Part shown: positions 11,903 through 29,717 of the stretch, in pieces
Layout of the letters: every line of letters starts with the position of its first letter
Position numbering within the stretch: position 1 is the first letter of the stretch
NCBI GenBank assembly: GCA_964486045.1
Contig: CAZALK010000008.1
Span: forward strand, 128,001-192,000
Length of the DNA: 64,000 nt
Reading direction: 5' to 3'
DNA from: an uncultured archaeon
GTDB taxonomy: Archaea > Asgardarchaeota > Lokiarchaeia > Sigyniarchaeales > SOKP01
The notes under the pieces: generated by a model
The model's input: the letters and a program-made list of their open reading frames with translations, nothing else
Database searches by the model: none
What the model was told of the DNA's origin: nothing
Program-made: the position numbers and the translations under genes

Positions 11903-12784
11903 GTGAAAATGATCGCTAAACAGAAATTTGGTAACACCGGACATATGAGTACCAGAATTATTTTTGGAGCTGCGGCGCTCAGTAATGTTACACAAGCTGA
12001 AGCAGATCAAACATTTGAAGTACTTCTTAAGTTTGGAATAAATCATATCGACACTGCTGCGGGTTATGGGGAGTCAGAGTTACGAATCGGTCCTTGGATG
12101 GAAAAACATCGCAATAAATTCTTCCTTGCTACAAAAGTATTTAGGCGTTCCTATCAAGAAGCCCTTGATCAGATACATAGTTCACTTGAACGAATGCGTG
12201 TATCTTCAATCGACTTAATTCAATTTCATAATTTGACATCTCCTAATAGCTGGAAAAAAGTAATGGGTGAAGATGGAGCCTTAAAGGCCGCCGTTGAAGC
12301 CCGTGAACAAGGAGTGGTAAAAAACATTGGTGTAACAGGGCACGGATATACTGTAGCTGCCATGCATAAACAAAGCTTAGAGCATTTTGAATTTGATACG
12401 GTTCTATTACCATACAACTACATGATGGTACAAAATTCGGAGTATGCTGCAGATTTTGAAAGCCTTTTGAAACTATGTAAGGAACGAAATGTGGCAGTTC
12501 AGACAATAAAATCTCTCGCACGCCGTCCTTGGGGTGGGAGCAAAAGGATCCGAACCACGTGGTACGAACCTTTTGAGGATCAGGTTGATATAGACCGTGC
12601 AGTTCATTGGGTTTTAAAAAAAGAAGGAATTTTCCTCAATACAAGCGGTGATATTCATATTTTGCCCAAAATACTTGATGCTGCCAGTCGTTTCAATATC
12701 GGACCCCCCGAAGAGGAAATGCAGGAAAAAGCTACTCAGCTAGAGATGAAACCAATATTTGATGGAAGATCCTTAATTTTATAA
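11903..12784 (+). CDS. Aldo/keto reductase
   Basis: [32 protein letters not shown] and IGVTGH motifs. Confidence 0.92.
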
Positions 12785-12974
12785 TGAGTAATACTTTTTT
12801 TTAGCCCATTAAATGAGAGTTTTATTTACCTTCTAAGAGTTTTATACAGTTTAAAACAACTGGAAGAAGTAGACATTCATAAAATTAAATTTCTTAATAG
12901 CAATAAAATCATCAATTCTCTTGTAAGAAGAAAGAAAAAAAGAAAAAAAAGAGTTAAGGGTTAAAAATCTTATG

Positions 12975-13532
12975 CTAAATAGCTACAAACTCAATCGTTA
13001 GTTGATTAAACAAATCGTCAGCACGAACAAAAAAGTTATTATCTCCTAATAAAGACTCTCCGTTAATTTCTATATAATTTGTACCATTACTATATACAAA
13101 CGCAAATGAATCAACAGAATGGTATTGGGAATTCATTGCTAATGATGTCTCATAATAATCTAAAAAAAATTCGGTAATACCATCTTTTAATAATTTTATC
13201 GTATAAATACTAGCAGGATTGATATCCATCAATACCATAGAGAGGTGGATTCGATACCAACCAGGTTTTAATAAAGTAATACGAGTATTAGTGTTTGAAA
13301 CAGAGATAAAGTTAGGATTACTCAAGCTATTGTCTCCAAATTCTATAAGCCAATTATCTAGCGCATTATGAGGGGGATAACCTTGATTGTCCGCAAGCGA
13401 ATCCCATACTCCCACAACGATAGTCATATTATTAGTGGTATTTTGACCGTTCCACACTACAAATGTAAATCCTATTGCTCCAGCGGCTAAGATTATCCCT
13501 ATAACCCCTAAAACTGCTCCACCACGTCCCAT
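12975..13532 (-). CDS. Membrane-anchored C1q/TNF-like protein (paralog B, no heptad stalk)
   Basis: MGRGGAVLG.IG..LAAGA, NTRITLLKPGWYRIHLS and FNQLTIE are shared with 11153-11761. Confidence 0.7.
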   Translation of the reverse strand: MGRGGAVLGVIGIILAAGAIGFTFVVWNGQNTTNNMTIVVGVWDSLADNQGYPPHNALDNWLIEFGDNSLSNPNFISVSNTNTRITLLKPGWYRIHLSMVLMDINPASIYTIKLLKDGITEFFLDYYETSLAMNSQYHSVDSFAFVYSNGTNYIEINGESLLGDNNFFVRADDLFNQLTIEFVAI

Positions 13533-13840
13533 TATTTATCACTCATAATTTTTTTTTAATTTCATTTTTTAAATATTAGTTAAGAATTGGATTATATTTC
13601 TAAATATTTTAAAATTATACTAATAAATTAGAACTTTTTTAGAAAAAAGTTATGAAATAAAGCTAAATTCAGCTTCTATGACGAACAAACTTTAACGATT
13701 AAACAGAGCACATTTAATAAAGTTTAATATCATTACGAATCAAAACCTTATTTTTAACCTACATCAAAAATACTATTATCAAATTTAGGTCAAGTCATGA
13801 TTGTGAAACTATCGAGATCTTCAGCAATTTCATTCAAAGA

Positions 13841-14146
13841 TCACGAAAGATTTTGAAAAGAAATTAAATCCATCTGAATTGATCTATGGTTAATATTTGA
13901 GACTAGGTCTTCAAGATCAGGGAACTCAAAAGGGAAGATGTTTTCAAAAGCTCTTTTTAACAATTCAACGTACTTCTTCTTGTCATATTTGTGCTTTTTA
14001 TCATCAAATAAGTCTGAAAGGATAACCTTTTTTTCAGGAAAACTTGGATCCGCATCGGCATTAAGAATAATATATCTTACGTTTTTACCTGCTGATGCAA
14101 TAACACCAGAGCGTTCTAACTGTCTTGCGGCAACTGCCTGGTAACT
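13841..14146 (-). pseudogene. Start-less 3' fragment of a PolB2 polymerase gene (101 codons + TGA)
   Basis: Translates as SYQAVAARQLERSGVIASAGKNVRYIILNADADPSFPEKKV...QMDLISFQNLS*. By manual alignment 83 of 101 aa are identical to the C-terminus of 24904-27327. There is an in-frame TAA at 14165-14167 upstream and no start codon. Confidence 0.9.
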
Positions 14147-14711
14147 AGTTTTCCCTTCTCTAAGTTAATCTGAGTTTAGGTTTTGCGAAGAAAAACTTAT
14201 GTAATAAACCCTCGAATGCTTTCCTCTAAAATAATACTGTGCCTTTTATAAGAGGGAGAAATAGAAAAGAAGTGCAAGGAAAAAAAGCTAAAAACTTGGA
14301 ATTGCTTAAAGATAATTAAAATAAAATCACGAGATTATCTTGACTTTTTTCTTCAATATTCTGAGTAAAATAAGAGAGAAAAAAAAAATGCTCGGGAGTT
14401 TGTTCAGCTGCGGGTGGGATAACTATAATCATAACACCATTCGATAAATATTTTAATATGCGTTTATCAATTGCATGGATCTTAATAAACTCAAGAAATT
14501 ATCTTTGGCCAAAATAACCATCATTAAACAAAATGAGCTATTCAATGCAAATAGTAAAAGGTACAGAGCTTTTAGGGGAAAACTGTGACAATATTCTCAA
14601 ATGTATTAAAAAAATAGAAGAACCGTATTATAAGACAGAAACTCTATCAAGTTAAATTATTCCCTAATAGTTAAAAGATGATTTCAACACCCTCTATAAT
14701 ATCTAGATTTA

Positions 14712-16769
14712 CTATTTTATTGAAGCCATGAATTTCAAAATAGTATCCATAATAGGAAGAGAGTTACAAATTATTCCAATTCTTTTAGCCCGAAAATCAA
14801 AGGCTTTCCTTCCAATAGGTGCGAGGTATGGATAATTGGAGATAATTATTACTTCATCTCCAGCCAGTATTGCATTAAATTTAACATTTTTACTCAATTC
14901 AAGGAAATTACAATTTTCACATTCTTTTGTTATCATTTCTAATTTTCTTATCCCCTCTTCCCATTGAATTGAGCTTTTTATAAGTTCCGTCTTATTTAAT
15001 AATATAGAGAAAGAAGGGATCTCTTCTAGGTGTGATTGAAATATTGGACCAATTCTTTTCTGACTTAGCTTTTCAGTAATTAATTGGAATGGCGCTTGTA
15101 TCTCTCTCATAGCATCTATTAGTATATCTTCATGTTCATAATCATATAATAATGATATACATTCTATATTCACCAAAGTGTTAATTTTTTCTTTGATTTC
15201 ATATAGTAAACCATTTGTACTCTCTATATTCTCGTTTAATATAAAAAATTCAAGGTCCTCAATTTTTTTTTCAAAAAAATTGATAATATTAATTCTGTAA
15301 TCGGACAAATTATTACAATAGACTTGAGTGGATTTTGCTAAGTATTTGTTTAAAACTTTTTTTCTATCAAATGAATCAGGTAAAAAATCGATAACAAATT
15401 GCAAAAGGCTTAAAGGTGTCTTTCCGCCCTCTAAATAAATGTTTGGAGTAATTAAACCCTCCTCGTTGTAATTATAACCAAGGAATGATAAACAATTGTA
15501 AAAGACTTTGTTGTTATCAATGATTAAAAAATTTGCATCAATCATATTATCCGATATAGTAAAAAATACTCTATTTTTATCTTTTCTTTCTAGTCCAGAA
15601 GATACTCCCAGTCTAAACTCCTTGATCTTTTCACGCTGTTCGCTAGGTGAGATCTCTTCTACACCCCCCCAAATAAACGTAATAGGTACTTCATTTTGAC
15701 TAGATTCATATATAATACTCTGAAGAAATGATAAATTGTTTAAGTTTAAATTATCAGAACAGATAACAATAAAATCTTGTGCATTTTTAACGTGTTCAAT
15801 AATAAGATTTTTTACTTCTAAATTTTGATATTTAAATACTATTTTATTTACACTTTCAATTCGTTCTTTTAAAATTTTAAAATCTTTTTTTATTCTATCA
15901 AACCTATCCTCTAACAATATTTGAAGGCTCAAATTCTCTTCAAGATTATTAAAAGAGTTAATTTCTTCCTGTAAAAAGTTAAGGTTGAATAGAATTTGGG
16001 TTATAAATTTTTTATTTGACAAAATAATCGGTGTTTCAAGAGTTAAATCTTCTTCTATTTCTTCTGATTCCATAAGTTTTGATTCAAAAGCTTTCTGCCA
16101 ATATTTTTGGACGACTCTGGGGAATATATCAAAATCCAGATTAAATAAAATACCTTCTTCCTTTTTAATTGGAATATATAATTTATCTCGATGTAAGGGA
16201 TATAAGAAATTAATTTTTTCGACATTTTCTAAATCTCTAACTCTTGATTTAACACATTGAGTATATTTTAGTAAAGAATAACTATATATATGTTGAAATG
16301 TCTCTGAAGGTGAAGATTTTAAATCAATGAAATTCGTTTTATCAGGATTAGGTGTCTTTAAATAATCATTAACATCATTTTGAATAAAGAGTTCCCCCCC
16401 AATTTTTTCTTGAAGAATTATTACGGGATATTTATAGACAGTAGTATCAACATCCAAAAATTCATCTAGTTTATCTTTTTCAACATATTCAATAATCTTT
16501 TCGCTAAGTGTTACTAATCCACTATTTAAATCAATATGGATTAATCCTGAATATATTAATGGTGTTAATATATAATTCATAATATGTTTTCCAACATTAA
16601 AGGCTTTAACTATGTTTATTAGTGAATTATCTTTACTTATTAATTTTAAAACTAATTTCTCAAGATGAGAAAGCATCTTACTTTTACGAATCACAATTTC
16701 ACATTTTTCCATTTGAATTGGAACAGTAATAACATCATCTTTTTTAACCTCCAGATTTTCCTCAGACAT
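14712..16769 (-). CDS. MkoB-like protein: N-terminal wHTH-like region plus two degenerate PLD-fold domains
   Basis: PLD-fold patterns (VKNAQDFIVICS...ITFIWG...IDANFLIIDNNKVFY; EHEDILIDAM...KFNAILAGDEVIIISNY) lack the HxK residues. Start lies 1 nt after the helicase stop codon. Confidence 0.65.
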   Translation of the reverse strand: MSEENLEVKKDDVITVPIQMEKCEIVIRKSKMLSHLEKLVLKLISKDNSLINIVKAFNVGKHIMNYILTPLIYSGLIHIDLNSGLVTLSEKIIEYVEKDKLDEFLDVDTTVYKYPVIILQEKIGGELFIQNDVNDYLKTPNPDKTNFIDLKSSPSETFQHIYSYSLLKYTQCVKSRVRDLENVEKINFLYPLHRDKLYIPIKKEEGILFNLDFDIFPRVVQKYWQKAFESKLMESEEIEEDLTLETPIILSNKKFITQILFNLNFLQEEINSFNNLEENLSLQILLEDRFDRIKKDFKILKERIESVNKIVFKYQNLEVKNLIIEHVKNAQDFIVICSDNLNLNNLSFLQSIIYESSQNEVPITFIWGGVEEISPSEQREKIKEFRLGVSSGLERKDKNRVFFTISDNMIDANFLIIDNNKVFYNCLSFLGYNYNEEGLITPNIYLEGGKTPLSLLQFVIDFLPDSFDRKKVLNKYLAKSTQVYCNNLSDYRINIINFFEKKIEDLEFFILNENIESTNGLLYEIKEKINTLVNIECISLLYDYEHEDILIDAMREIQAPFQLITEKLSQKRIGPIFQSHLEEIPSFSILLNKTELIKSSIQWEEGIRKLEMITKECENCNFLELSKNVKFNAILAGDEVIIISNYPYLAPIGRKAFDFRAKRIGIICNSLPIMDTILKFMASIK

Positions 16770-16770
16770 T

Positions 16771-19700
16771 TTAATATGGAACCTCGTCGTGTGAGATTAT
16801 TTTTCCTTCTTTTTGAAAAAAGACTGCCACCTTACTAAATTTTTCCATAATTGGATTTCTACGATGATTTAAACACATTTTTAAATCACCTACAATTATT
16901 TCTACTTTTCTCGCTCTTGAGAGCATTACATTTAGTCTTTGAGGATCAGGAATAAAACCCCAAGCTGATCTGATTCCTTCTTTATTGTTACTTCGAACAA
17001 GTGATATAATCACTAAATCTGCCTCTTGACCCTGAAAACTATCAACAGTATAACAAGAATTTTTAATATTTATCCCCCCCAAGTTTGGAAGGTTGTTTGG
17101 TAAGTGAGTCTTTAAAACATTTACTTGCTCATTATAAGGGCTTAAAATAGCCAAGGAGAATTGGATATACTTCTTATTAACTCTAATTTTTTTTAATATT
17201 CTATTAATTAATTTAACTTCAGAAATGTTGTAAAAATCTGTACCAGCCCGTTTTTCTCCATAGATTCTTTCATTTTTTGTATTGATCCAAATTAATTGTT
17301 CATTTGACATCATAGTTGGTTCTAAAATTAAATCATCTATTTCATGAATTTCTTGTCTAAAAGCTCTGTCATAGAAAATTGTTGAAATCATTTTACTAAT
17401 TTTTGAAGGAAGTCTATGTTGGCCTATGAGTGTATTACAAGATCTCCTTTCATCAGCAGAATCATATGAAGGGCTTATTTTTTTAAATCGTTCGAACATA
17501 GATTGGAAGATTTTTACTTCTCTAATTGTTAACTTTCTAAATTCTAAGAAATCTCTTTCATTAAAGGTTATTTCTTCTTTAGATTCCTCTTCTATTTCAT
17601 CTAATTCTTCATTGATTAGTTCAATAATATCATTTAGTTTAAATGGAGGGAGTTGGTTTTGATCTCCAATTAGGACCCACTTATTCCCTAGCTGCAAAGG
17701 TCGGAATAATTCAGAAGGATATGTTTTAGCAGCCTCCTCGATTATTACTAAATCAAAATTAGGTCTTGATTCCAGTTTACTCAAATCATTAGACGTACTA
17801 GTACAGAAAACTAAGTTTGAACTCTCTCTAATACTATCTGTCCATTCACGACTTGGTGCTTTACCTTCGTATTTTATTATGTTTTCAATTTCGGCTAAAA
17901 TGTCATCATATTTTTTAAGATTAGGATTCCATTTTTCAATATTCTCTAACATTTTAATAGCCATTTGTTTAGGAAAATGCTTAAAGGCTATTGATCCTGG
18001 CGGATAATTACGTTCTCTAAATGGATTAATTAGTCGAACAATTTTAGGTTTTGGATTAATGTTTAATTCCTTGCACATGTCATAAGTCTTCTCTAGAAGG
18101 TCATCTAAAGCCGCATGCTCTTTACTTGAGACTAGAATCCTTTTATAAGGGTCTCTTTCAAGAGTTAATCTAATTAATTCCTTTGCAGACCATGTTTTTC
18201 CCGTTCCTGGAGGTCCTTGAAGAAGGAATATTGGAAAAGTGTAGAAAATAAAATTTACGATATCACTCTTATTGTCTTTCAAAAAATATTGATGTATCGC
18301 AGCTGGATTTAAAATCGCATCAATTAAATAATCTTTATCTTCTAAATTTTGAATAGTCATAAATTTCCTTTTTAATAGATGCAATGTTGGTTTTAAATCC
18401 CAAAAACGCAAATAACCATTTAAAGAAGGACTATCATTTTTTCTAACTTCTTCCCATTTTACAACAATATTGAAATCATCAGGTTCATCAATAATTTCAA
18501 TAAATTTCCATTTTCTTCGTTCTTTAAACCTTTGTTTTAAATCTGGTGAATCTGTTAGTTCTACAGTTTGAGTTTGAGAATTTCTTAAGACTTGTATGAA
18601 CCGGGTCCTTTCAGCTTTGTTAAAAATGTTTATACTAATTTGTCGTTTACTTTTTTTTGGACTCTCTTTATCGAATGAATCGTTTATAAGTTCATATTCG
18701 AATATGTATCTTTTTTCAATATTTTGCTCTACTTTAGTAATAAGTTTTAATGCTTCTAACCATCTTTTCTTATCTAGTTCATAATCTGATGGTTCTTCAT
18801 CAATAGTTCTTATTTGTGTTAAAGCATTTGCAAATATCCGATCCCAAGTAGAATATGATTTTTCTTTAAGATCTTGCCAATATAACTCATTTACTTTACA
18901 GACACAAATATCATTTTTCAATCCAAAACTTCTCTCTTCATTTTTATTTAATAAACTTACTATTGCAATTTTTCTATTATTACGACCCCTCTGAAATTTA
19001 TACTTTCCATTTTTACCAATTGCCCATAAGGGCCAATCTCTATTATTCGTTAAATAAAAAGATAATTCTGAAAATTCATTTTTTAAAAAAGCATCTGGAT
19101 ATTCTCGAATACCTTGAATATTTACATCAACCTTCCGAGCAATCCAGTTGAGAAAATGACTATCTCGGTCTATATTGAAGTATATTGGTAATTTAGGTGT
19201 TGTAATTGTGAGATATTTAAGTTCGTTCACAAAATCTCTAATCTTTTCTACAAATTCATCAATGCTTTCAAATCTGTCTTCGTGATTCAATTCGGTTGCT
19301 TTTAAAATTATTTCTTTTTCTTGTTGTAATCCCTCTTGAAAATGTATATTATCACGGATTTCATTGTATAATCTAGCTCTATCTGAAAACTCAGTGTCTT
19401 CATATTCAATCATATCTAAATCAAAAATTAGAAAAGCCATTACTAATCCTAAAGAAAAAATGTCTGATTTAAAAGTCTCCATCTCTAAGCACTCAGGTGC
19501 TCTAAAAAAATGCAAGTTATTTTGAATAATATTTTTTGTAATCTCATCAGAGATTAGATTAGATATTGAATATAAATAAATACTCCAGTTAAAATCACCT
19601 AATCTAAAGATATGATCTTCACCTTCTCGATAAGCTTCCCTGTTAAAATAAACCGTATCAAGAGAGATGTTTCTATGTAGGAGTCCTGCGTTATGAATCG

Positions 19701-20160
19701 CAAGTAATCCCTCTGATAATTTTAAAATTCCTTCCCAAATTTTTTTTTTTGAAAGATTTGAATTCTTTAATTGATCAAATAGTTCGATATCTTCATTCTC
19801 CTTTTTAGATAAGAGAATCTCCCTTAAACTTGAACCTCCTGCCTCAGTTATTAAAATAAAACAATTCTCCTCCTTATCGTACTCACCATCAATTAATTTT
19901 AGTAATGTATTTCCTCTAGAAATATTAATTGCTCTTTGATTTAAAGAAATTTCATAATGCCATAGATATTGAGCTAACTCTTGAATACGAGGGTCCTCTT
20001 TAACGTTAATTTTTTTTAATATAACTCTCTGTTGTAGACCACGATCTTCGGCGATATATTGATTTATTTCAATCTTATCACTAAAAGGGATCGCAATATT
20101 GCCTGTAATTTCTTCAATAATTCTATATCTTGTTTTCCATGAATCATAAATTGAGGTCAT
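16771..20160 (-). CDS. MkoA-like Ser/Thr kinase-like domain fused to a UPF1/DNA2-type SF1 helicase
   Basis: Kinase motifs: VILKK, LLHRNIS, LGDFN, FRAPE, SDIFSLG. Helicase motifs: QGPPGTGKT, IIEEAAK, LIGDQNQLPP, QHRLP, SPYNEQ, TVDSFQGQE, RLNVMLSRAR. Confidence 0.88.
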   Translation of the reverse strand: MTSIYDSWKTRYRIIEEITGNIAIPFSDKIEINQYIAEDRGLQQRVILKKINVKEDPRIQELAQYLWHYEISLNQRAINISRGNTLLKLIDGEYDKEENCFILITEAGGSSLREILLSKKENEDIELFDQLKNSNLSKKKIWEGILKLSEGLLAIHNAGLLHRNISLDTVYFNREAYREGEDHIFRLGDFNWSIYLYSISNLISDEITKNIIQNNLHFFRAPECLEMETFKSDIFSLGLVMAFLIFDLDMIEYEDTEFSDRARLYNEIRDNIHFQEGLQQEKEIILKATELNHEDRFESIDEFVEKIRDFVNELKYLTITTPKLPIYFNIDRDSHFLNWIARKVDVNIQGIREYPDAFLKNEFSELSFYLTNNRDWPLWAIGKNGKYKFQRGRNNRKIAIVSLLNKNEERSFGLKNDICVCKVNELYWQDLKEKSYSTWDRIFANALTQIRTIDEEPSDYELDKKRWLEALKLITKVEQNIEKRYIFEYELINDSFDKESPKKSKRQISINIFNKAERTRFIQVLRNSQTQTVELTDSPDLKQRFKERRKWKFIEIIDEPDDFNIVVKWEEVRKNDSPSLNGYLRFWDLKPTLHLLKRKFMTIQNLEDKDYLIDAILNPAAIHQYFLKDNKSDIVNFIFYTFPIFLLQGPPGTGKTWSAKELIRLTLERDPYKRILVSSKEHAALDDLLEKTYDMCKELNINPKPKIVRLINPFRERNYPPGSIAFKHFPKQMAIKMLENIEKWNPNLKKYDDILAEIENIIKYEGKAPSREWTDSIRESSNLVFCTSTSNDLSKLESRPNFDLVIIEEAAKTYPSELFRPLQLGNKWVLIGDQNQLPPFKLNDIIELINEELDEIEEESKEEITFNERDFLEFRKLTIREVKIFQSMFERFKKISPSYDSADERRSCNTLIGQHRLPSKISKMISTIFYDRAFRQEIHEIDDLILEPTMMSNEQLIWINTKNERIYGEKRAGTDFYNISEVKLINRILKKIRVNKKYIQFSLAILSPYNEQVNVLKTHLPNNLPNLGGINIKNSCYTVDSFQGQEADLVIISLVRSNNKEGIRSAWGFIPDPQRLNVMLSRARKVEIIVGDLKMCLNHRRNPIMEKFSKVAVFFQKEGKIISHDEVPY

Positions 20161-20451
20161 AATTATCCTTTTTTTGTCTCTAATAAGTATTAATATTTGT
20201 TTTGTATTTCAGCTGTATTTTATTCGTTTTTCGACTTTAAAAACCTTAGCTTAATTTTTGGTATTTGGTGTTGGTAATATATGAAATGTTGGGTTTTAGA
20301 TCTCTAAGCACAAAACCATAGCCATTCAAGCCTACGGCGCCTTCCTTAAAGTTATCCTTTCCTCCCGCCGCGTCTGTTGCGAGTTTAATAATTTGCTCGA
20401 TTCTCATCTCTTAAAGATAAACAAAGTAACCCATCAATTTAAATTTATGGA

Positions 20452-23331
20452 TTGACATTGATTAACGATTTATTAAAATTCTTCTATACTGAACCAAGCG
20501 ATTTAGACTATTCTCCTGGTAATGAGATGACGACAGCATTTATTTATGACGAAATTCGAGAAATTGGAGATAACATTTTTACATCTAATATAGATCCTAA
20601 ATTTTATAAAGAGACCGCTGAAATATTCTTAAAAGACATTGATACTCTATTACAAGATACTCCGGATGGGAAAAGATTAGTATGGGAAGAATCATTAGTG
20701 GCACATCTACCCGCTTTGGACGAGAATGGTGATCAAATTATTTTAAGACCTTCAATGCTACCTTCTAAAGATACCGGCTTCTTTATCTGGGATGAAGGAA
20801 AAAAGAAATCCTCTGACGAATTAACAGATCAATGGGGAAACGAAGGCGGATGGGGTTATTTTCAGGGAAAAGGCTCCCCATTTATTTTTGTTCACGATGA
20901 CGATGGCAATAATGGAATTATGCCCGTAAGTTTAATGGGTGATACCATGCCTGAAGGAATAAATCTAGGATATAAGAGTTCAGGTACAGGAGATGTGATA
21001 AAAGGAGTGTATCTAAGCGACGAAGGAGGAGGACTTTTACTATCACAAATTGGGCTCATATCTGAAACGTTCTATGCTAAGGGTAAGGAATGGTTCAAAG
21101 ATCCATTAGCCATCCCAAATCACATTAACCCGAATTATGAAATAGAAATAAATGGTAAGGTTGTCATGGTTCCTAGACTAATTTATTACAGATCTTCTAC
21201 GAGACAGACTGGTAACCATATCCATGGATTCCTTCAGAAGGTAGTATCCACTATGGTACCTCGGAACACGTACAAACCGCTCATAAAGGCTGAAGTTTCT
21301 CTAACAAGTAGACTGAAAAGCATCTTAAAAAGTAGCGAGTTTTCTTATCGGTTTGAATTCGATAGGGATTTCTCATCTAAGCAATTATTCGAAATACTTA
21401 GTTTACTTCCTACTGTTGCTCAGAAAGGCTCTTCAGGTGCGATTGATTCAACTGCTTTAAATTTACTTAAATATTTTAATGGTCGATTTATAGGTAAAAA
21501 AACATTGACGAATTTTATTCCAGGTCCAGACAAAATTGAAATTAATGACATGATTAGGGCGTTAGAATTCACTGCCTTAGAATTAAAGCGATTAGCATGG
21601 AAAAATAGTGATAATACTTTCATCGGGGCAAATCAATATCTTAAAGAATGGTTAATGTTAATCTATAATAAGATTATGACATACGATAAAACTCAACCCA
21701 ATGCTGACACTAGCATAATACGAGAGCAAGAAAAACTAACAGACCTCAGAGATAACCATGCCACAACTTATTCTGAACTAGTTACCTCAATTGAGCCAGA
21801 AAAATGTACTCCAAAGGAGTGGAATATGGCCATTAGTATTTTTGAGTCAGCATCAAAGTTATTTGGTCATGGGACAGTCAGATTAATGCTTTCAAATATG
21901 GTGAATTTCAATAAAGATAAGAGCATAAAAATATATAATACTCCTCCAAAAGGTGAACTCGCAGCAATTCATAATCATATAGGTTTTGCTTCTATGGGCA
22001 ATTTGCCAATTTCTGATTATACAACCATCGGTAACTTTTACGAACATATGGTTGGAATATTTCTTCTAGATTCTCATGTTATCATACCGAGGACTGATAT
22101 TATAATTAATTCAAAAGAAAACTCATACATATTTCCTTTCGGACCAATAACATTTAATAATCCGACCGAAATTGTCGAAGCCAATACCATAGGTTCATTT
22201 TCTTGGTCTTTAGCTAAAAAGATTTCTGGCGAATTCAAAATATATATGAATAGCAAAACGAAGATAGATAGTTTTATATCCTCACAAACAAATCTATATA
22301 ACGCCTTTTCTGATTTATTAGATGAACAAATAATAGATCAGAGACTCTATAACAACTTCAACACCCCTGAAAAGACTTGGAAGGAAAGGAAAGGAATGAA
22401 TATCTGGCTTTCTAGAAGAACCAAACAAGTCGCAAGGACAGAGCTCTTTTCTATTCAATCCGGTGGCTTAAGAAACAATATTGATGAATTTAGGGCATTA
22501 TTTGATTATTTAACTGACATACCATTTAATGTCCTTAAGGCGGGAGCTACTACTACATTCTCTCTATCACTAACTCAGCCATTTTTAGAAAATATAGACT
22601 ATTTGAGTTGGCCAAAGGACGCCATTGCCAAACTTATCGAGGATTCTTATCAACGTTTCAAAGATGAAAATATTGAAAACTTTTTTGACCAAACTAGAAA
22701 GATAATTTCAGAATTTGGAACCGACGGTAAGAAAGTGCTAATTCAACCTATATTTTCTACAAACGATCCAGATCTAGGATATCAACACCTAATATCTGCT
22801 GAAAATCTCGCTAAAAAGAGGTGGTTACCAAGAGAAAAAACGGTATTTGAAGTTGACCTTACCAAACCCGAGGAAGCACATTATGTTTTAGAACATATAG
22901 CTCATCTTATGGCTACATTTAATATCGCTTTTGTATTTAGAGAGTGGATTGACCTAGATACTGACCCCCGTTATAAAGATATTTATTTGAGGACAGAAAA
23001 AATGAAGAAATATTTTGAAGATAATCAAGAAGTAATTACAGCGGTTGATTTTGAGGGTTATTTACGCATTGACGAAATCTATTCAGGGTCTTCTTCTGGT
23101 GAACAAGTCTTACTTAATGGCTATACCACAAATTCAGAGGGAAAAACATTTTTTGATGCTGAAGTTTTTAAGACATACGATGAATGGGACAAAGTATGGA
23201 AACATAAAATGGGTTTCTTTTCGATTTCATTTGGTAAATTTAATTTTAACGCATTAATGTCTGGCACTTCTGATCAAGCGAATACCCTAAGAGAGATATT
23301 AGATCCAACAGGAACAAGATTTAGAAATTAG
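20452..23331 (+). CDS. Hypothetical protein, 959 aa (no recognisable motif)
   Basis: Long uninterrupted ORF. The TTG start is uncertain. Its stop overlaps the stop of the convergent LRR gene. Confidence 0.8.
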   Translation: MTLINDLLKFFYTEPSDLDYSPGNEMTTAFIYDEIREIGDNIFTSNIDPKFYKETAEIFLKDIDTLLQDTPDGKRLVWEESLVAHLPALDENGDQIILRPSMLPSKDTGFFIWDEGKKKSSDELTDQWGNEGGWGYFQGKGSPFIFVHDDDGNNGIMPVSLMGDTMPEGINLGYKSSGTGDVIKGVYLSDEGGGLLLSQIGLISETFYAKGKEWFKDPLAIPNHINPNYEIEINGKVVMVPRLIYYRSSTRQTGNHIHGFLQKVVSTMVPRNTYKPLIKAEVSLTSRLKSILKSSEFSYRFEFDRDFSSKQLFEILSLLPTVAQKGSSGAIDSTALNLLKYFNGRFIGKKTLTNFIPGPDKIEINDMIRALEFTALELKRLAWKNSDNTFIGANQYLKEWLMLIYNKIMTYDKTQPNADTSIIREQEKLTDLRDNHATTYSELVTSIEPEKCTPKEWNMAISIFESASKLFGHGTVRLMLSNMVNFNKDKSIKIYNTPPKGELAAIHNHIGFASMGNLPISDYTTIGNFYEHMVGIFLLDSHVIIPRTDIIINSKENSYIFPFGPITFNNPTEIVEANTIGSFSWSLAKKISGEFKIYMNSKTKIDSFISSQTNLYNAFSDLLDEQIIDQRLYNNFNTPEKTWKERKGMNIWLSRRTKQVARTELFSIQSGGLRNNIDEFRALFDYLTDIPFNVLKAGATTTFSLSLTQPFLENIDYLSWPKDAIAKLIEDSYQRFKDENIENFFDQTRKIISEFGTDGKKVLIQPIFSTNDPDLGYQHLISAENLAKKRWLPREKTVFEVDLTKPEEAHYVLEHIAHLMATFNIAFVFREWIDLDTDPRYKDIYLRTEKMKKYFEDNQEVITAVDFEGYLRIDEIYSGSSSGEQVLLNGYTTNSEGKTFFDAEVFKTYDEWDKVWKHKMGFFSISFGKFNFNALMSGTSDQANTLREILDPTGTRFRN

Positions 23332-24599
23332 TGGATTTTTATCCCTTTTTTTTTTAATTTTTGAATAATGAGATTACCACTTTCTGTAAGGTTGTTTTCA
23401 TCAATAAATAAAGTTTTTAGATATTTTAGATTTAGCAAGTTTTTTGGTAAATCTCTAATTTTATTTCCCTTTAAATTAAGAAGTTCGAGATTTTCAAGTT
23501 TACCTATAGATTCAGTTATTTTTTTTATCCGATTCTTTTGTAGGTGCAATGTCTTTAAATTTCTTAACAAAAAGACGTTAACGGGTATTTGAGTTAAAAG
23601 ATTATTACCTAAATACAGATATTCAAGTCTTTTCAATTCGATAATTGAATCTGGAATTTCTTCAACCATATTACCCAGAGAAAATAATTTAAGCCTATTT
23701 AGAGCACCTATTCTTTTTGGGACAAATTTTAGACAAGCACTTCGGATTCTTAACTTTTCAATCTTGTATAGGTCAAATATTGAGTTTGGAAATTCCTCCA
23801 AAATACTACTTTCCACTGATAATTCTTGTAAATTCTTTAATTTTACAAATGTTTTCGGTATTGATGGTATTTTATCTCCAAAATAACGTAAAACTTGTAA
23901 ATTTTTAAAGTTAGAGACTGAACTCGGGAGGGGTTTTGCGGGTTTATTATACCAATATAACAGTAGTTTAATTACGGACTTATCTTTTACCATAAACTGT
24001 TGACTCTCATCCAAGCCGTCACCAGTGTCAAATTCCTCCCAATTTACCTTTTGGTTTATAGGCTCATCTGTAAACTTTTCAAGCTCAAGCAACGATTCAG
24101 CTTCCACAGGATTTAAAATAGACATAAAATATTGATCACGGTCTAAAAAATCGACATAATGTTCGCTGACTAAAAATTTAATAACTGAATCATTCCCTGA
24201 AGCGAGACGTGTTGCGATTTCTCCTTTAAAGACTTGTTTTGCGATTGCATCACCGGCTTTAGTGAGAGCGTGAAGTAGTGGAAATGCCAAATTTCGATGG
24301 AGCAGTCGTGTGTCATAATTGTTCTCATACCATACTTGTAAATTTGAACAGTGTGCCCAAAACTCAGTTCTAGGATCTATATAGACATCTTCTCGCTCAC
24401 CAGGGTGTTCTAGGGTATTATCAAGTTTTTCAGTGATTTCATCAAGAGACTTAAGTTCTTCAAGCGATTTAACTTTGTTAATTGGGATGTTTAAAAGTAA
24501 GAATTTGCATTGAATGAATCTCTTACCAGCAACATAAATAATTGTTCGAACACCCTCGACTTTTAGCGTTAAATATCTATTAATTCTAAATTCGCTCAT
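23328..24599 (-). CDS. Leucine-rich repeat protein with Lokiarchaeia-type N-terminal domain
   Basis: N-terminal EFRINRYLTLK...FIQCKFLLLNIP...EFWAHCSNLQVWYENNYDTRLLHRNLAFPLL domain. C-terminal LxxLxLxxNxLxxIP repeats. Start is reassigned to the ATG at 24599 (MSEF). Confidence 0.88.
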   Translation of the reverse strand: MSEFRINRYLTLKVEGVRTIIYVAGKRFIQCKFLLLNIPINKVKSLEELKSLDEITEKLDNTLEHPGEREDVYIDPRTEFWAHCSNLQVWYENNYDTRLLHRNLAFPLLHALTKAGDAIAKQVFKGEIATRLASGNDSVIKFLVSEHYVDFLDRDQYFMSILNPVEAESLLELEKFTDEPINQKVNWEEFDTGDGLDESQQFMVKDKSVIKLLLYWYNKPAKPLPSSVSNFKNLQVLRYFGDKIPSIPKTFVKLKNLQELSVESSILEEFPNSIFDLYKIEKLRIRSACLKFVPKRIGALNRLKLFSLGNMVEEIPDSIIELKRLEYLYLGNNLLTQIPVNVFLLRNLKTLHLQKNRIKKITESIGKLENLELLNLKGNKIRDLPKNLLNLKYLKTLFIDENNLTESGNLIIQKLKKKGIKIH

Positions 24600-24903
24600 G
24601 ATCTCCTCAATATAAAGAAAAGTTGTCTTTATATAATTAATCGAAATCAAGACATAAAAAAATTATGTGTAAGTATATTTTTTGATTTTATAAATACCAA
24701 AAGAGCCAATATTAAATTTTTCTTTCTTATTGAAAATGTTATAAAAAAGCCATTAAAAGAGTTCAGACTAAAGGAAAAATACAAATTAACCAAAACTTGA
24801 CTAATCATTAAAATTATAGGAGAGATAATCTCAGAAATTTTTTTTATTTTTTTTAAATTTAACTTAAAATTCACTACCCAATGCACTTAATCTTTACATA
24901 ACT

Positions 24904-27327
24904 TTAAGTTTTTTTACGGGCGGTTTGAAATGACAGCAAATCCATTTGAGTTGATTTTTGGTTGAAGTTTGCTACTACTTCTTCAAGATCGGGAAAGCTA
25001 AATGGAAAAATGCTCTCAAAAGCCCTTTTTAATAGTTCTGTGTACTTCTTTTTATCATACTGGTGCTTCTTTGGATCATACAAATCCGAAAGGATCACTT
25101 TTTTTTCGGGAAAACTGGGGTCTGCTTCAGCGTTAAGGATAATATACCTTACATTCTTTCCCGCAGAAGCAATTACACCCGAGCGTTCTAGCTGTCTAGC
25201 CGCTACTGCTTGGTAAGAGTTCACCTTGTATTGTGAAGGTCGTCTTGAAATCTTTTGTTTTATCGTAAGCTCATCCCCCGATACATTACCACTTGTGATT
25301 TTGTTAATATATTCATAGAGCTTCTTTTTTGCTTCGGGAATTTTTTTCATAAACTCTTCGACGGAAACGACTCCTTGGAATACATCAAAAAAAGCATATT
25401 GGGCATCTTTGACGATCTTTGGTATATCTCTACGTCTCACCTCAACGCCTCTGACCTTTAGTTCTCCATTAGTTTTGATACCCCAATAATGAGTGAGGGC
25501 TGGAACGTTACGTTCGGCTCGAGAGGGCAGAAAAGCAATGACATTATAGCATCCATCCCAGCTCATCGGGACTCTAGTATGATCCGTTATTTCTTCAGCT
25601 ATCTTCTTAGTTACTTTTTCAAACTCCTCGGGAGTTCTTCCTTTCGTGTCTTTCACATAGATTGAATCAACAATTCCGTGAATAATCTTGCACCCGTGAC
25701 TTCCAGCGATTTCAGCCGCACGCATTAAAAATTCTCGGGCAAATGCACACACTGTTTGGTGTGCCTCAATTTTACCAAAACGCGCATTTTTGAAGCCTAA
25801 ATAACCAAAACTTACTACAAGCACCCATTTTAAAGCGATATCTGTGAACTTGTATCGAAGATCATCGTGTGTTTTGTTATATGCTTTGCACTCTAAACGT
25901 TTTCTAAGGGGTAGACTAATCGATTTTGAGATAATTCCTTCTCTTTTGGAACAGATATGAAAACCTCCTCCTCCGGGTACTCTAATTCCCGTTCCATCAT
26001 CTTTGCAACATTTGCAGTTAATTGTTTCAGATGAAACGTTAAGATTGGCCATAATGGAAGGATACATTGATGAAAAATCGAGTTCTACAACTTGATCAAA
26101 GACTCCGATTATTGGCTCGAATATATGGCCTCCCCGGTCATTAACGATCAGATCCATGCCATTTCTAAATCCTTCAGGACTTTTCTTGAAAGGTGGAATA
26201 AGATGACCTAGCTTGTAGGCATTATAATATTGTATCGACTGAAGCGCACCTCCAATTGTTATTCTACATAGTCTCTGCATCGCTACTCGAGAAATCCTCG
26301 CAACTTCAATAATTCCTGGTATATTTCCTTCACTAAAGTGCAAACTCCCATAAGAAGATGTATCCATATGAAAACGACCAGTCAAATACACTTGCGTTTT
26401 AGAGCGACGCATTATTATCCCATATGACATATAATGATCTGAGTTTCCTGAAAGGTTAAAAATACAGTTTTTTAGCGGTGTTTTATTCCGAGAAAGGTAG
26501 AGATCCTTTGATACTCGATTCACTGATGCCCGAGCAACTAAGTATGGAAATACGAATTCGTCTCCTCCACTAGTTAATATAATATCAGGATCTAATTTCT
26601 CGATTACTTTACTAATCATTTTAATGGTTTCTGCTTCATCAGCTTCATCGATAAGAATCGTTCTTTTTCTCTGACCGTCTGCCCTTGGCACATTATTTTC
26701 ATCATTTTCAACAATGCTCACCTCTGCGTATACCAAACAGTCGTTAAAATATGATCTCATCCCATGTTGTTCAACTTTTATATCCAGCCATACAGATTTT
26801 AACGGAGGTAATTCATAAAATAGTTCTTCGTTGTCATCTTTTAAATCTAAGGATACCAGCTGCATTGAGTGACCATCAGCATTTTTCTTCTTTTTAGGTT
26901 TGACCTTGAAACTGCAAAAAGACATAGGAAAGAGATCATTTACGTAGAAATACATCTGAGCGATTGGAAGATCGGTGTTATATAACGTAAACAGCCCAAT
27001 CCCATCAATAGCTTTAATAGTTTTCTTAAATACTGAAGGCTTCACCACAGAGACTCCAAAGATTTTTGTCTTCTTATGGTCTTCTAGCTTCACATATTTT
27101 TCGCAGATTCGTACACCTTTAACGTCGTGATGGGATAAAAGAATAGTCTCTAGCCTCCTAAAATCGTTACCCATGTGTTTCTTTGGCACAGCAAAAAATT
27201 CGGGGCAGAAATCATGAAATATTTTTACAATCTTTTGCTCTTTTGCAGTTTTCACCCAAAGAATGACTCCATTGCCATGAGTGGAGACATCAAAAAGCCA
27301 ACCGTCAAATTGTTCTTGAAAGCTCAA
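24904..27327 (-). CDS. polB2: Family B DNA polymerase, PolB2 (Dpo2-like) group
   Basis: LDFSSMYPSIM, KWVLVVSFGYLG, HGIVDS (in place of YGDTDS) and VRGVEVRR. Exonuclease motifs are degenerate (LDIK, GGDEFVF). C-terminal PIP-like QMDLLSF. Confidence 0.9.
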   Translation of the reverse strand: MSFQEQFDGWLFDVSTHGNGVILWVKTAKEQKIVKIFHDFCPEFFAVPKKHMGNDFRRLETILLSHHDVKGVRICEKYVKLEDHKKTKIFGVSVVKPSVFKKTIKAIDGIGLFTLYNTDLPIAQMYFYVNDLFPMSFCSFKVKPKKKKNADGHSMQLVSLDLKDDNEELFYELPPLKSVWLDIKVEQHGMRSYFNDCLVYAEVSIVENDENNVPRADGQRKRTILIDEADEAETIKMISKVIEKLDPDIILTSGGDEFVFPYLVARASVNRVSKDLYLSRNKTPLKNCIFNLSGNSDHYMSYGIIMRRSKTQVYLTGRFHMDTSSYGSLHFSEGNIPGIIEVARISRVAMQRLCRITIGGALQSIQYYNAYKLGHLIPPFKKSPEGFRNGMDLIVNDRGGHIFEPIIGVFDQVVELDFSSMYPSIMANLNVSSETINCKCCKDDGTGIRVPGGGGFHICSKREGIISKSISLPLRKRLECKAYNKTHDDLRYKFTDIALKWVLVVSFGYLGFKNARFGKIEAHQTVCAFAREFLMRAAEIAGSHGCKIIHGIVDSIYVKDTKGRTPEEFEKVTKKIAEEITDHTRVPMSWDGCYNVIAFLPSRAERNVPALTHYWGIKTNGELKVRGVEVRRRDIPKIVKDAQYAFFDVFQGVVSVEEFMKKIPEAKKKLYEYINKITSGNVSGDELTIKQKISRRPSQYKVNSYQAVAARQLERSGVIASAGKNVRYIILNAEADPSFPEKKVILSDLYDPKKHQYDKKKYTELLKRAFESIFPFSFPDLEEVVANFNQKSTQMDLLSFQTARKKT

Positions 27328-27602
27328 TCTTTAGTCTTTCCTTTTATCATTTCTTCTAATTTATTTACTTTCTTTTCTAGCATCTCAATTTTCTTTTCTT
27401 GTTCTACGGCAAAAGAAAGGAACAATATTTCTGATAGCATTGGACGTGCGCTCATGCTGCCAGCATCTGCATGTATTCGAGCATAATTCATTAATTTATT
27501 AAATATTTTTTGTCCTTCAGGCCTTAAAGCTCTTTTAAAGCCTTTCCAGCTTTCAATCTCATGTTCTAACGCAGGCCTGAAAGAAGGTACAGTTCTTCCC
27601 AT
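27324..27602 (-). CDS. Small PolB2-associated protein (arCOG07300-like)
   Basis: MGRTVPSFR...WKGFKRALRPE..IFNKL family pattern. Overlaps the polB2 start by 4 nt. Start is reassigned to the ATG at 27602. Confidence 0.8.
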   Translation of the reverse strand: MGRTVPSFRPALEHEIESWKGFKRALRPEGQKIFNKLMNYARIHADAGSMSARPMLSEILFLSFAVEQEKKIEMLEKKVNKLEEMIKGKTKD

Positions 27603-27780
27603 ATTAAAAACCAAGTAAAATAATTCGAATAGAAATTTAAGGGGAAATGGCATCGAAATTTTTTGATTTTCTGAAGAATTTTAAAATTTAATTTTGAATC
27701 AAGAGGGTTATAGATTTTTTTTAGTTAGCAAAAACTTTATTTAAGGGGTTAATTTACACTAGCTAAATTAGAGTTAGGTT

Positions 27781-28170
27781 TTGTTCTTGAGTGAAGAATT
27801 ATTACGATGGCATGCGCCTTGCGGAATTTTTTGTAAAAGATGTTTGGCTTCAGAACGCCTTGGATGCGAAGGTTGTAGGGAACGAGAAGGGAAAGTCTTG
27901 AAGGGCCCCCTATGTAAAACTTATGAATGTGTTACAAATAAAGGACACGAATTCTGTTATGAATGTAATGATTTCCCCTGTGAAATGCTCCAACCAATTG
28001 TCCATTTTGAACAGTTTCTTCCCCATAATTCAAAACTTTATAATTTATTAATGATACAAAAACTCGGTTTAGATGAGTGGAATAAAATGTGTGAGGAAAA
28101 ATCAACACTTTACTATAAAGGAAAGAAGATTAAACGTGGTGGCGATCCCCTTACACTTGAAAAAGATTAA
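27781..28170 (+). CDS. DUF3795-like cysteine-rich protein
   Basis: APCGIFCKRC, CEGCR and C..YEC...KG.EFCYEC.DFPC motifs. Confidence 0.8.
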   Translation: MFLSEELLRWHAPCGIFCKRCLASERLGCEGCREREGKVLKGPLCKTYECVTNKGHEFCYECNDFPCEMLQPIVHFEQFLPHNSKLYNLLMIQKLGLDEWNKMCEEKSTLYYKGKKIKRGGDPLTLEKD

Positions 28171-28252
28171 AAAAAAAGTCTCATTAATTATAGCAAAGTG
28201 TTCATAAATCTAATTTTAGCAAAATTTACACCAGAATTATCTGGGAACTATC

Positions 28253-28900
28253 ATGAATTCTAAAAAAGATAATTTTGGACCTTCAGCTGATGTTAAAAGT
28301 TATGTATTAGCATCAGGAGCAGATATCGTAGGGATTGCAGATCCTTTCAAATTAGCTGAGATTTCTGGAAAAAAAAGCCCATTTTCAGCCATGGAAAACA
28401 CCAAATCAGTAATTATTTTTGGAATTGCTATGCCAAAAGAAATTATTGAAGAAGCTCCTGAAGCAGAGTACCAGAGAAGGCTTGCAAATTACTTCGATAA
28501 ATTAAGAAGAATAGCTAAAAAAGTAGCAAGACAGCTTAAAGAACAAGGATTTAATAGCTATCCTTGCCATGATCAAGATAATATTGAACACAAAAAGGCA
28601 GCTGAGCTGGCTGGACTCGGTAGAGTAGGAAGTCATACTCTTTTGATTACACCCCTTTATGGCCCAAGGGTGCATTTAAACTCAGTATTAACTGATCAAA
28701 TTCTTCAATTTGATACTATTATAGAAACTAAAATTTGCGATCAATGCGACGAATGCATCAAAGGTTGCCCCCCTGCTGCTTTAAAAAAAGGTTTAGAAGT
28801 GGATCGCCAAAAATGCCTAAATTATCGTTACACAAAATTAAAAAGACGTTATTGTGGTTTATGCATGAAAATTTGCTGGGAACATCTTGGATGTCCTTAG
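28253..28900 (+). CDS. Epoxyqueuosine reductase-like Fe-S protein (QueG/reductive dehalogenase-like)
   Basis: GADIVGIA, HKKAAELAGLG, LLITPLYGPRV, CDQCDECIKGCP and CGLCMKIC motifs. Confidence 0.8.
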   Translation: MNSKKDNFGPSADVKSYVLASGADIVGIADPFKLAEISGKKSPFSAMENTKSVIIFGIAMPKEIIEEAPEAEYQRRLANYFDKLRRIAKKVARQLKEQGFNSYPCHDQDNIEHKKAAELAGLGRVGSHTLLITPLYGPRVHLNSVLTDQILQFDTIIETKICDQCDECIKGCPPAALKKGLEVDRQKCLNYRYTKLKRRYCGLCMKICWEHLGCP

Positions 28901-28967
28901 TATATTTTACCCCAACTCTAAATTTCTAAAGAAAATTTTTGATAGATTAAGGTTTTATCTCATAAAG

Positions 28968-29717
28968 CTAAATCCAACAATCTATCGTAGCATTTTTTAG
29001 AGGAATTTTCTTTTTTGATGTACGAGGCTTCCATTTTAATAACCGCTTTTCAGGCATGTAAGGATGCTGAAAGAGGGTGTATTCTGCATAACGTTCGTCA
29101 TCATTTATCATTACGAGCACACTCCCAAAATGAGAAAGAATTTTTCCCCCTTTTGGCCTGAAAAGAGAATGTTCATGTAAAGGTGCTGTTATAATAATGA
29201 GGGGATTTGTCTTCCAAAGGATCTTTCTAATCCCATCTAAGGTTCTTAGTAGATCTTCAAAAGTCTGTTTTTCGTAGGCCTCAAACAGAGTTGTAATTCC
29301 CGAGATCATCACAACTTTCACATCTTCAAGTATGGAAAGTTTGTTCTCTAAAATTTCAACCATTTGCTCCCAAGTGAAAGCTCTGCTTATGAGAATATTT
29401 TTCAAAACCTTTTGGGGGGACAGGTTTTGAGTAACTGCAAATTTACTTACATTATAAGGGTTAAATCGATTATTTCCATCGACAAATGCAACTTTGATAC
29501 CTTCTCCAAGTCCTCCATTACTAAACGCTTTTTGGGCAATAACGGCAGTTGTTAATAAAATATTTGTCGTTAATTTCTTGTCTCCATAAAGCAGATAGAC
29601 TAAATCTCGGTGAAATCCTCCGGAAAGCAACTCATCGAGAGTTTTATCTCCGCTTGAAATGAGAGGAGAATGAATATTCCTTTTGTACACCTTGAATCCT
29701 GAATCAAACGTCATCAT
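28968..29717 (-). CDS. RadA/Rad51-like protein with degenerate Walker A (PolB2-associated)
   Basis: SSGDKTLDELLSGG, VAFVDGNNRFNP and NILISRAFTWEQ. Walker A position reads LYGDKKLT. Start is probably the ATG at 29717 or 29714. Confidence 0.85.
   Translation of the reverse strand: MMTFDSGFKVYKRNIHSPLISSGDKTLDELLSGGFHRDLVYLLYGDKKLTTNILLTTAVIAQKAFSNGGLGEGIKVAFVDGNNRFNPYNVSKFAVTQNLSPQKVLKNILISRAFTWEQMVEILENKLSILEDVKVVMISGITTLFEAYEKQTFEDLLRTLDGIRKILWKTNPLIIITAPLHEHSLFRPKGGKILSHFGSVLVMINDDERYAEYTLFQHPYMPEKRLLKWKPRTSKKKIPLKNATIDCWI

Follow-up and report, generated by a model that had tools for sequence, protein, structure and literature searches.

The stretch of DNA analyzed here (the window, 64 kb long) lies on contig C8 of an uncultured member of the Lokiarchaeia, referred to as G000, whose metagenome-assembled genome (MAG) comprises 5.18 Mb in 45 contigs with 7.8% contamination; positions are those of the window unless a contig is given. 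On the minus strand it encodes a family-B DNA polymerase of 807 amino acids (aa), polB2 (24904–27327), and downstream of this gene lies a second, truncated copy of its 3′ end (13841–14146, also minus strand). Between the two copies are found a pair of genes resembling the Mokosh defence system, a large orphan gene and a gene for a leucine-rich repeat (LRR) protein. An earlier note on this DNA had proposed that foreign DNA with cargo and with a polB2, or polB2 3′ end, of its own recombined into the resident gene, and that polB2 may act as a recombination anchor or hotspot for defence cassettes. Our analysis agrees with the first of these proposals and gives no support to the second. The polymerase gene is a chimera whose old 3′ end was displaced by DNA that probably entered through homologous recombination at one end and an illegitimate joint at the other.

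The displaced copy corresponds to codons 703 to the stop of polB2 and is best described as a startless pseudogene fragment. Its translation gives 101 residues and a stop, with zero internal stops and zero frameshifts, and can be aligned gap-free with the C-terminal ~100 residues of the polymerase (83/101 aa identical), as the earlier note had described. With a repeat finder, the two copies were delimited to 13852–14144 and 24924–25216 (293 nucleotides (nt), 77% DNA identity). Homology between them has a sharp onset at 14144 ± 2 and extends as far as the stop codon; the sequences flanking the two copies do not align to each other. No open reading frame (ORF) of at least 60 aa with an ATG, GTG or TTG start covers the fragment, which sits in an open frame of 107 codons. 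Only these two copies of the polB2 3′ end are present in the whole 5.18-Mb genome, and the longest exact match between them is 11 nt. The dN/dS comparison called for by the note, run by the Nei-Gojobori method, gave a proportion of nonsynonymous differences (pN) of 0.113 and of synonymous differences (pS) of 0.79, the latter saturated. In the first 30 codons pN was 0.03 and pS 0.75, in line with the observation that the protein is conserved, far beyond chance, despite many third-position changes. A saturated pS with a low pN points to long divergence of the two copies under purifying selection, and thus supports the suggestion that the two ends represent two long-separated functional alleles (omega about 0.1). 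The fragment itself has changes at two otherwise invariant positions, a Y to F replacement in the SDLYD block and a Q to K replacement in KKHQYD.

The fragment, and not the end of the intact gene, represents the native 3′ end of polB2, as had been suspected. Between 14143 and 13908 its DNA shares 91.5% identity with the end of polB2 on the metagenome contig L068 (pS 0.33, pN 0.042, omega about 0.1), whereas the resident end is only ~78% identical to L068 with a pS of 0.83. In L068, no more than 48 nt separate the polB2 end from an aldo-keto reductase gene that matches the one beyond the fragment in the window (11903–12784, plus strand, Pfam Aldo_ket_red) with 90.9% nt identity over 11787–12787 and 95% aa identity; a reductase also adjoins polB2 in L041, L044 and L072. 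Because a fragment-like polB2 end runs straight into the same reductase, L068 can be regarded as the empty site, and this match, together with the lower pS to L068, identifies the fragment and the reductase as the native continuation of the gene. The closest protein supports the same assignment. P0006, the single clearly nearest relative of the polymerase in a search of 5.8 billion proteins, has a tail that ends almost exactly as the fragment does, and over the final 101 residues it shares 90% identity with the fragment but only 80% with the resident end. Fragment and P0006 form a clade with a Shimodaira–Hasegawa-like approximate likelihood-ratio (SH-aLRT) support of 87. The comparison of downstream synteny that the earlier note had suggested as a check for empty sites was equally informative among congeners: the island was found in none of the 44 with polB2, and in about half of the congeners polB2 abuts a conserved 182-aa gene at a gap of ~25 nt.

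Resident polB2 is a chimera, with a foreign 3′ part that starts at codon ~540. Its product is 95–100% identical to P0006 up to residue 535 (~98% overall) and ~70% identical from residue 536 on. In a tree of residues 1–535, G000 was placed as sister to P0006 (support 99, path 0.039), while in a tree of residues 536–702 it grouped with P0011/P0045 (support 95–97) at a distance of 0.68 from P0006; for this second segment the approximately unbiased (AU) test rejected a clade of G000 and P0006 (p 0.0105). DNA comparisons locate the change at the same place. Identity to L068 is 88–94% at codons 246–395, 83–85% up to codon 545 and 62–73% thereafter; identity to a second contig, L062, is 69–78%, rises to 83–85% at codon ~521 and is held to the gene end. 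Among sites that discriminate between the two contigs, 54/73 are L068-like before nt 1620 and 151/197 are L062-like after nt 1623, and the most likely breakpoint therefore falls at nt 1620/1623 (Fisher p 4e-14), corresponding to window position ~25705 and codon ~540. A crossover point, for which the earlier note had suggested sliding-window trees, was thus found at codon ~540 and not at the start of the repeat (codon 703), and 160 codons of foreign sequence precede the duplicated segment. We accordingly divide the gene into a native 5′ two-thirds, codons 1–540 (25708–27327, minus strand), characterized by ~98% aa identity to P0006 and by the DNA identity to L068, and a foreign 3′ third, codons 541–807 plus stop (24904–25707, minus strand), delimited by the breakpoint analysis and including the resident repeat copy at 24924–25216. 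No second copy of native codons 541–702 was found anywhere in the genome. Fast divergence in situ of codons 536–702 was considered as an explanation and rejected, given the sharp edge (99 identical residues, then ~30% differences), the well-supported grouping of this segment elsewhere (95–97), and the gain in identity of the donor-like contig at the same point. A split polB2 was also observed in congener G022 (L057, G022:C17:7354–9601), where residues 1–541 and 632–802 are in separate frames only ~100 nt apart, a pattern suggestive of a deletion or of a further recombination scar within the gene.

The foreign tract as a whole extends from 14147 to ~25707 and is a composite of 11.6 kb. Next to polB2 lie a doubtful 79-aa gene (24647–24886, minus strand) with no family match, in which the last 60 nt alone are conserved in L062, and the LRR gene (23328–24650, minus strand; Pfam LRR_14, 1.2e-21). 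The latter is followed by the 959-aa orphan on the opposite strand (20452–23331, plus strand), which had no Pfam, PADLOC or NCBIfam match. LRR homologs occur directly 3′ of polB2 in L062 (78% aa, 80.5% nt identity) and L066 (61% aa), and the order polB2-LRR-orphan, with the orphan on the opposite strand, is also seen in both L062 and L066, the latter a Loki’s Castle contig. Because both genes follow polB2 in these two contigs, they are not free cargo; they are the usual neighbors of polB2 in a sublineage and came linked to the foreign 3′ third. The orphan aligns with 54% identity to residues 677–1614 of a homolog in L066 (2556–7445, LAZR01004209.1), whose ORF spans at least 1629 aa and runs off the contig end. 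As homology reaches the first codons of the orphan, while the N-terminal 676 residues of the homolog have no counterpart in the window, the G000 gene must be 5′-truncated at about 20452.

The remainder of the island is occupied by the putative defence genes. The gene at 16771–20160 (minus strand) encodes a predicted MkoA-like kinase and helicase of Mokosh type I (PADLOC MkoA 1.5e-166; Pfam Pkinase, AAA_11 and AAA_12), and its MkoB-like partner is encoded at 14712–16769 (minus strand; PADLOC MkoB 5.5e-21), 1 nt away on the same strand. By gene content the pair would qualify as a Mokosh type I system, and the intervening genes recognized in the note (Mokosh-like pair, orphan and LRR gene) were confirmed by PADLOC and Pfam. 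A 565-nt non-coding spacer without any ORF (14147–14711) extends from here to the joint at 14146/14147. The Mokosh block (14147–20451) lies between two truncated genes and has a GC content of 26–30%, compared with 37–40% in polB2; this contrast hints at a composite origin of the island but proves nothing. MkoA homologs were present in 2/53 congeners, with 33–36% identity, and a scan of metagenome contigs with MkoA recovered no close relative. Within this composite island, the Mokosh block may have been added while still in the donor or by a step of its own. Searches of all fetched loci with 14147–14711, 20161–20451 and 13533–13840 gave no match by tblastx or blastn, and the island holds no tRNA and no Rfam family. 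A 35-nt imperfect inverted repeat close to the two ends of the island (14306–14340/24823–24857; 74%, 10-nt perfect core) was judged to be a chance occurrence in AT-rich DNA.

Recurrence of displaced polB2 ends was sought by a scan of metagenome contigs and a class-wide genome search. No fewer than four further lineages proved to have them, and the cargo was non-defence in most cases. In L090, L095 and L096 the displaced ends start at codons ~747, ~723 and ~741 and are separated from the gene by inserts of 3.2 kb, 7 kb and 0.9 kb, the last with one 217-aa gene; in G080 and G082 the gap is ~0.7 kb each, and the three assemblies L105, L106 and L107 contain the same internal fragment from codon ~750. 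L095 and L096 are 93% identical overall, yet underwent different displacement events: the gene end and flank of L095 have their orthologs in the L096 fragment and the sequence downstream of it, and the two polB2 genes are 98–99% identical at the 5′ end and 78–91% toward the 3′ end. In some of these loci an in-frame start lies ahead of the displaced end (L106:3381–3635, L107:6070–6324 and L096:11515–11712), giving potential ORFs of 65–84 aa that keep a tail resembling a PCNA-interacting peptide (PIP). Second polB2 matches in G019, G025, G107 and G130 proved to be contig-end or full-length strain duplicates and were discarded as displaced fragments.

The earlier note expected variable cargo at polB2 in other genomes and saw in the gene a possible hotspot for defence cassettes; the region is indeed variable, but it is not enriched in defence genes. 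The distance from polB2 to a conserved 207-aa gene ranges from 15 nt to 6 kb, and gene order shifts. Cargo at the other displaced polB2 ends includes an ABC-2 transporter, a CAAX protease, a helix-turn-helix regulator, a tetratricopeptide repeat protein and unknowns, with no recombinase among them. Of 54 clusters of ORFs located up to 8 kb downstream of polB2 in ~65 loci, just a few matched defence models, namely a type IIG restriction–modification (R-M) enzyme, a methyltransferase/restriction endonuclease, mad2/3/8 and AriA, and most others were metabolic, transport or signalling genes. With non-defence cargo elsewhere and mostly housekeeping or accessory genes downstream, the idea that defence cassettes gather specifically at polB2 finds no support, and a specific coupling of a damage-tolerance polymerase to antiviral cassettes remains an attractive but unsupported idea. 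The type IIG R-M enzyme (N6_Mtase/Eco57I, 988 aa) is encoded in L061 (11582–14548, SDBU01005691.1), 1.5 kb downstream of polB2.

Displaced gene ends are not restricted to polB2. The last 100 residues of all 2435 G000 ORFs of at least 250 aa were searched against the genome, and fragments within 40 kb of the parent gene were retained. Startless C-terminal fragments on the same strand were found 13 times downstream of the parent and 0 times upstream; the mirror scan with N-termini gave 6 fragments upstream and 3 downstream. Parent genes encode acetyl-CoA synthetase, transglutaminase-like, DUF362, metallo-beta-lactamase-fold and LRR proteins, an HGD-D dehydratase and another family-B polymerase. 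Across these loci (L108–L119) the repeats are 100–370 nt long with 68–97% identity, and the inserts measure 0.76–10.8 kb, the smallest (0.76–1.3 kb) consisting of single unrelated genes. PIN, peptidase M28, hydrolase and flavin mononucleotide (FMN) reductase families were recognized by Pfam in the inserted genes. An all-against-all BLAST of the inserted genes revealed no shared small recombinase, only the 185-aa and 202-aa pair described below being related. Since the same scars occur at 12 other genes of this genome, the view of polB2 as a specific anchor is not supported. Gene-end displacement is instead a genome-wide mode of DNA gain in G000, of which polB2 is one instance. In the case of the other family-B polymerase (978 aa, C8:60608–63544; L119), a startless copy of the last ~98 codons is found at a distance of 6.2 kb downstream, in the same orientation (C8:54155–54436; 61% aa, 73% nt identity). 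The only scar with an integrase is that on contig C23 (L112, C23:49483–60113), where an 8.2-kb insert at the 3′ end of a gene for a von Willebrand factor A (VWA) domain protein includes a tyrosine recombinase (C23:57919–58380) ~1.5 kb from the fragment. Its repeat, with 82.6% nt and 96.8% aa identity, has a 17-nt exact core, and this locus is a classical integrative element.

The best explanation for the polB2 locus is one-sided homologous recombination with an illegitimate joint at the far end, to which we assign a probability of roughly 0.6. According to this reading, linear DNA of a different lineage within the genus, carrying the last third of a donor polB2, the LRR gene, the large orphan and the Mokosh type I operon, would have recombined into the resident polB2. 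The left end would have been resolved by a homologous crossover in the conserved motif-C region at codon ~540 (window ~25705), and the right end by an illegitimate joint at codon 703 of the resident gene (14146/14147). Resident codons 541–702 would thereby have been replaced and polB2 left intact as a chimera, with the old last 101 codons pushed 10.8 kb downstream, startless, beside the native reductase flank. The process is known as homology-facilitated illegitimate recombination and also as C-terminal displacement. Several features of the locus correspond to it. The homologous junction lies inside a conserved gene, as seen from the mosaic breakpoint, and the second junction cuts the recipient sequence without homology (abrupt at 14144 ± 2, with the adjoining 565 nt matchless). 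The recipient DNA between the junctions is lost, codons 541–702 being nowhere in the genome, and, both at polB2 and genome-wide (13 versus 0), startless displaced ends are located downstream of the parent gene in its own orientation. That no integrase is present at the locus, as noted before, was also confirmed: Pfam found no recombinase domain in the island ORFs, and a six-frame search with PF00589 located five tyrosine recombinases in the genome, none of them on contig C8. The breakpoint, the native ancestry of the fragment, the empty site, the missing recombinase and att core, and the recurrence at polB2 elsewhere and at about 18 other gene ends of G000 are observed, whereas a single event, the one-sided mechanism itself and the route of DNA entry are inferred.

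Several points weigh against this interpretation. For the last 100 codons, the AU test found placements other than with P0006 to be compatible (p 0.37–0.46). The polB2 3′ regions of the clade are mosaic: residues 536–702 are near P0011/P0045 and the last 100 codons are nearest P0012, and the polB2 of L061 reaches 95% DNA identity to the foreign tract only at codons 621–670. The tract at codons 541–702 could therefore stem from an exchange separate from the event at codon 703. The breakpoint was placed with one protein (P0006) and two more distant DNA contigs (L068 and L062) as comparators, the right joint was judged from the recipient side alone, and the junctions are known from the assembled sequence alone. 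Five displaced polB2 fragments all start within a window of 50 codons (703–750), a clustering tighter than expected of random illegitimate joints unless selection or erosion trims longer repeats. Lastly, with C23 the same genome has an integrase-carrying scar with similarly diverged repeats, so that replacement of gene ends by site-specific elements does occur in G000.

Among the alternatives, integration of an element with an attachment (att) site at the polB2 3′ end, its integrase later lost and codons 541–702 acquired by an unrelated exchange, is unlikely. The architecture would fit (a replacement 3′ end, cargo, a displaced old end and an intact 807-aa ORF), C23 with its VWA gene and tyrosine recombinase is a clear case in the same genome, and the clustering of polB2 fragments at codons 703–750 could be read as a preferred site. 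However, fragment starts differ among lineages (703, ~723, ~741, ~747 and ~750), neither the island ORFs and the contig nor the other polB2 fragment loci have a recombinase, and the inserts in L096, G080 and G082 (~0.7–0.9 kb), with one 217-aa protein without Pfam match, are hard to reconcile with an integrative element. The two polB2 copies also have no identical core (11 nt at most, compared with 17 nt at C23), and the foreign tract reaches 160 codons beyond the repeat. In E. coli, e14 and phage 21 integrate into icd and supply its 3′ end, the old end becoming a pseudogene. This arrangement, invoked in the earlier note, resembles polB2 in that the replacement 3′ end differs mainly at synonymous sites and the old end is a pseudogene beyond the insert. 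It differs in that polB2 shows no integrase or identical core, a variable insertion point and a foreign tract extending 160 codons further upstream, and as a mechanism the analogy finds no support. With an upstream breakpoint and without recombinase, tRNA or core, a simple att-site duplication of the e14/icd type is excluded.

A Campbell-type integration of circular DNA by a single homologous crossover, followed by a deletion that trimmed the downstream copy to codons 703–807, also appears improbable. It would explain direct repeats in the same orientation without an element-encoded enzyme, a crossover near codon 540 would be compatible with it, and islands flanked by repeats could re-excise as circles and spread; the copies at polB2 are, however, too diverged for efficient re-excision (77% identity, 11-nt maximum match). 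A second event would be required as well, a deletion of ~160 codons ending exactly inside the gene copy, and the 5′ part of the downstream copy is predicted to be donor-like, whereas the fragment resembles L068 and P0006 from its first codons.

We consider it very unlikely that the fragment is kept by selection, either as a silent cassette from which the polB2 C-terminus and PCNA-binding tail could be switched, in the manner of orphan Rhs/CdiA tips, or as a small expressed peptide. In every displaced polB2 fragment the frame stays open as far as the natural stop and the PIP-like tail is retained, L096 and L105–107 have an in-frame start codon ahead of the fragment, and the comparison with L068 gave an omega of about 0.1. 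Such a low omega is nevertheless expected if most divergence predates displacement, the fragments of G000, L090 and L095 lack a start codon, and that of G000 is altered at the two otherwise invariant positions. Copy-to-copy recombination would be inefficient at 77% identity, and the same scars are found at unrelated metabolic genes. Least probable of all is an assembly or binning artefact joining the DNA of two strains at the polB2 repeats on contig C8: the locus is known from the assembly alone, of a fragmented and partly contaminated MAG, and other bins (G019, G025, G107 and G130) hold two polB2 haplotypes on separate contigs, yet copies with 77% identity and exact matches of at most 11 nt differ too much for an assembler to confuse them, the fragment lies inside the contig between unique sequences, an identical junction is shared by L105, L106 and L107 from three data sets, and the same architecture appears in the independent assemblies L090, L095, L096, G080 and G082.

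One-sided homologous recombination of the kind proposed here has precedents in bacteria. Homology-facilitated illegitimate recombination was demonstrated by experiment in Acinetobacter, Streptococcus pneumoniae, Pseudomonas stutzeri and E. coli, according to work cited in PMC5361080 and PMC3240628. As in those systems, one end at polB2 is anchored by homology in a conserved gene and the other joins nearby without homology, the intervening recipient DNA is lost, and no element-encoded enzyme is needed; differences are the large insert (~11.6 kb) and our reliance on the sequence scar. To our knowledge the process has not been demonstrated in archaea. C-terminal displacement was reportedly described by Jackson and colleagues in 2009 for loci of the Rhs, CdiA and type VI secretion system (T6SS) type. 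Here too, the old end is supplanted by a new 3′ end together with the genes linked to it downstream, an orphan without a start codon and with unchanged orientation remains whose first codons lie within the conserved part of the gene, and the locus is recurrently hit. The gene concerned is, in contrast, a housekeeping damage-tolerance polymerase and not a polymorphic toxin, there is no cognate immunity gene, and each locus has one fragment, with no array and no sign of orphan reuse. For effector-immunity arrays of Rhs and T6SS, Kirchberger et al. (2017, PMC5361080) proposed a one-sided recombination model. At polB2, as in replacement-type genomic islands, a conserved anchor gene stands beside a hypervariable region, and the gene becomes more divergent and mosaic toward the island (L095 versus L096); the difference is that a clean double crossover leaves no duplicated end, whereas here the illegitimate joint leaves a scar. 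Flexible islands of this type, with hitch-hiking flanks, are exemplified by gnd beside O-antigen clusters.

The polB2 scar is thus of a known recombination kind, which has apparently not been described for Asgard archaea in the literature searched. It would provide a sequence-resolved case of an Asgard archaeon gaining an 11-kb block, including a Mokosh operon, without a mobile-element enzyme, and would indicate that an essential-looking gene can act as a homology anchor and survive as a chimera. Because such scars tell the old end from the new, gene gain in uncultured genomes could be ordered and roughly dated. The 13 3′ and 6 5′ scars suggest that the process is common in G000 and could be measured across archaea. 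A tentative extension, which may well prove too broad, is that Lokiarchaeia routinely gain DNA by one-sided homologous recombination in conserved genes, with ~19 datable scars in this genome that include both family-B polymerases.

The gene name polB2 is a reasonable one in light of domain content and gene neighborhood. The polymerase matches Pfam DNA_pol_B (7.9e-27), and its motif C reads HGIVDS. Upstream, within 27324–29750 on the minus strand, are a 109-aa gene (27324–27653), with no family match and a position conserved in relatives, and a RadA-like gene (28968–29750), whose 260-aa product matches Pfam Rad51 (8.8e-16) and, below the cut-off, NCBIfam RadA (6.8e-17). This arrangement is similar to the iRadA-PPB2-PolB2 operon (mutasome), in which a family-B polymerase with degenerate motif C is encoded with RadA-like and small partner genes (PMC11791011).

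On the native downstream side, the gene adjoining the fragment (12975–13532, minus strand, 185 aa) is an inverted paralog of a 202-aa gene (11153–11761, plus strand), so that the pair flanks the aldo-keto reductase. The two proteins are 51% identical, and their genes lie in inverted repeats I1–I4 with 74–86% nt identity (11109–11793 and 12943–13576). Neither has a family match and both are absent downstream of polB2 in relatives; the family has about four copies in the genome. On the upstream side, synteny is conserved in relatives, and the cassette of RadA-like, 109-aa and polB2 genes is interrupted at 27781–28900 by two plus-strand genes (DUF3795 and QueG/ferredoxin-like) that are also present in relatives.

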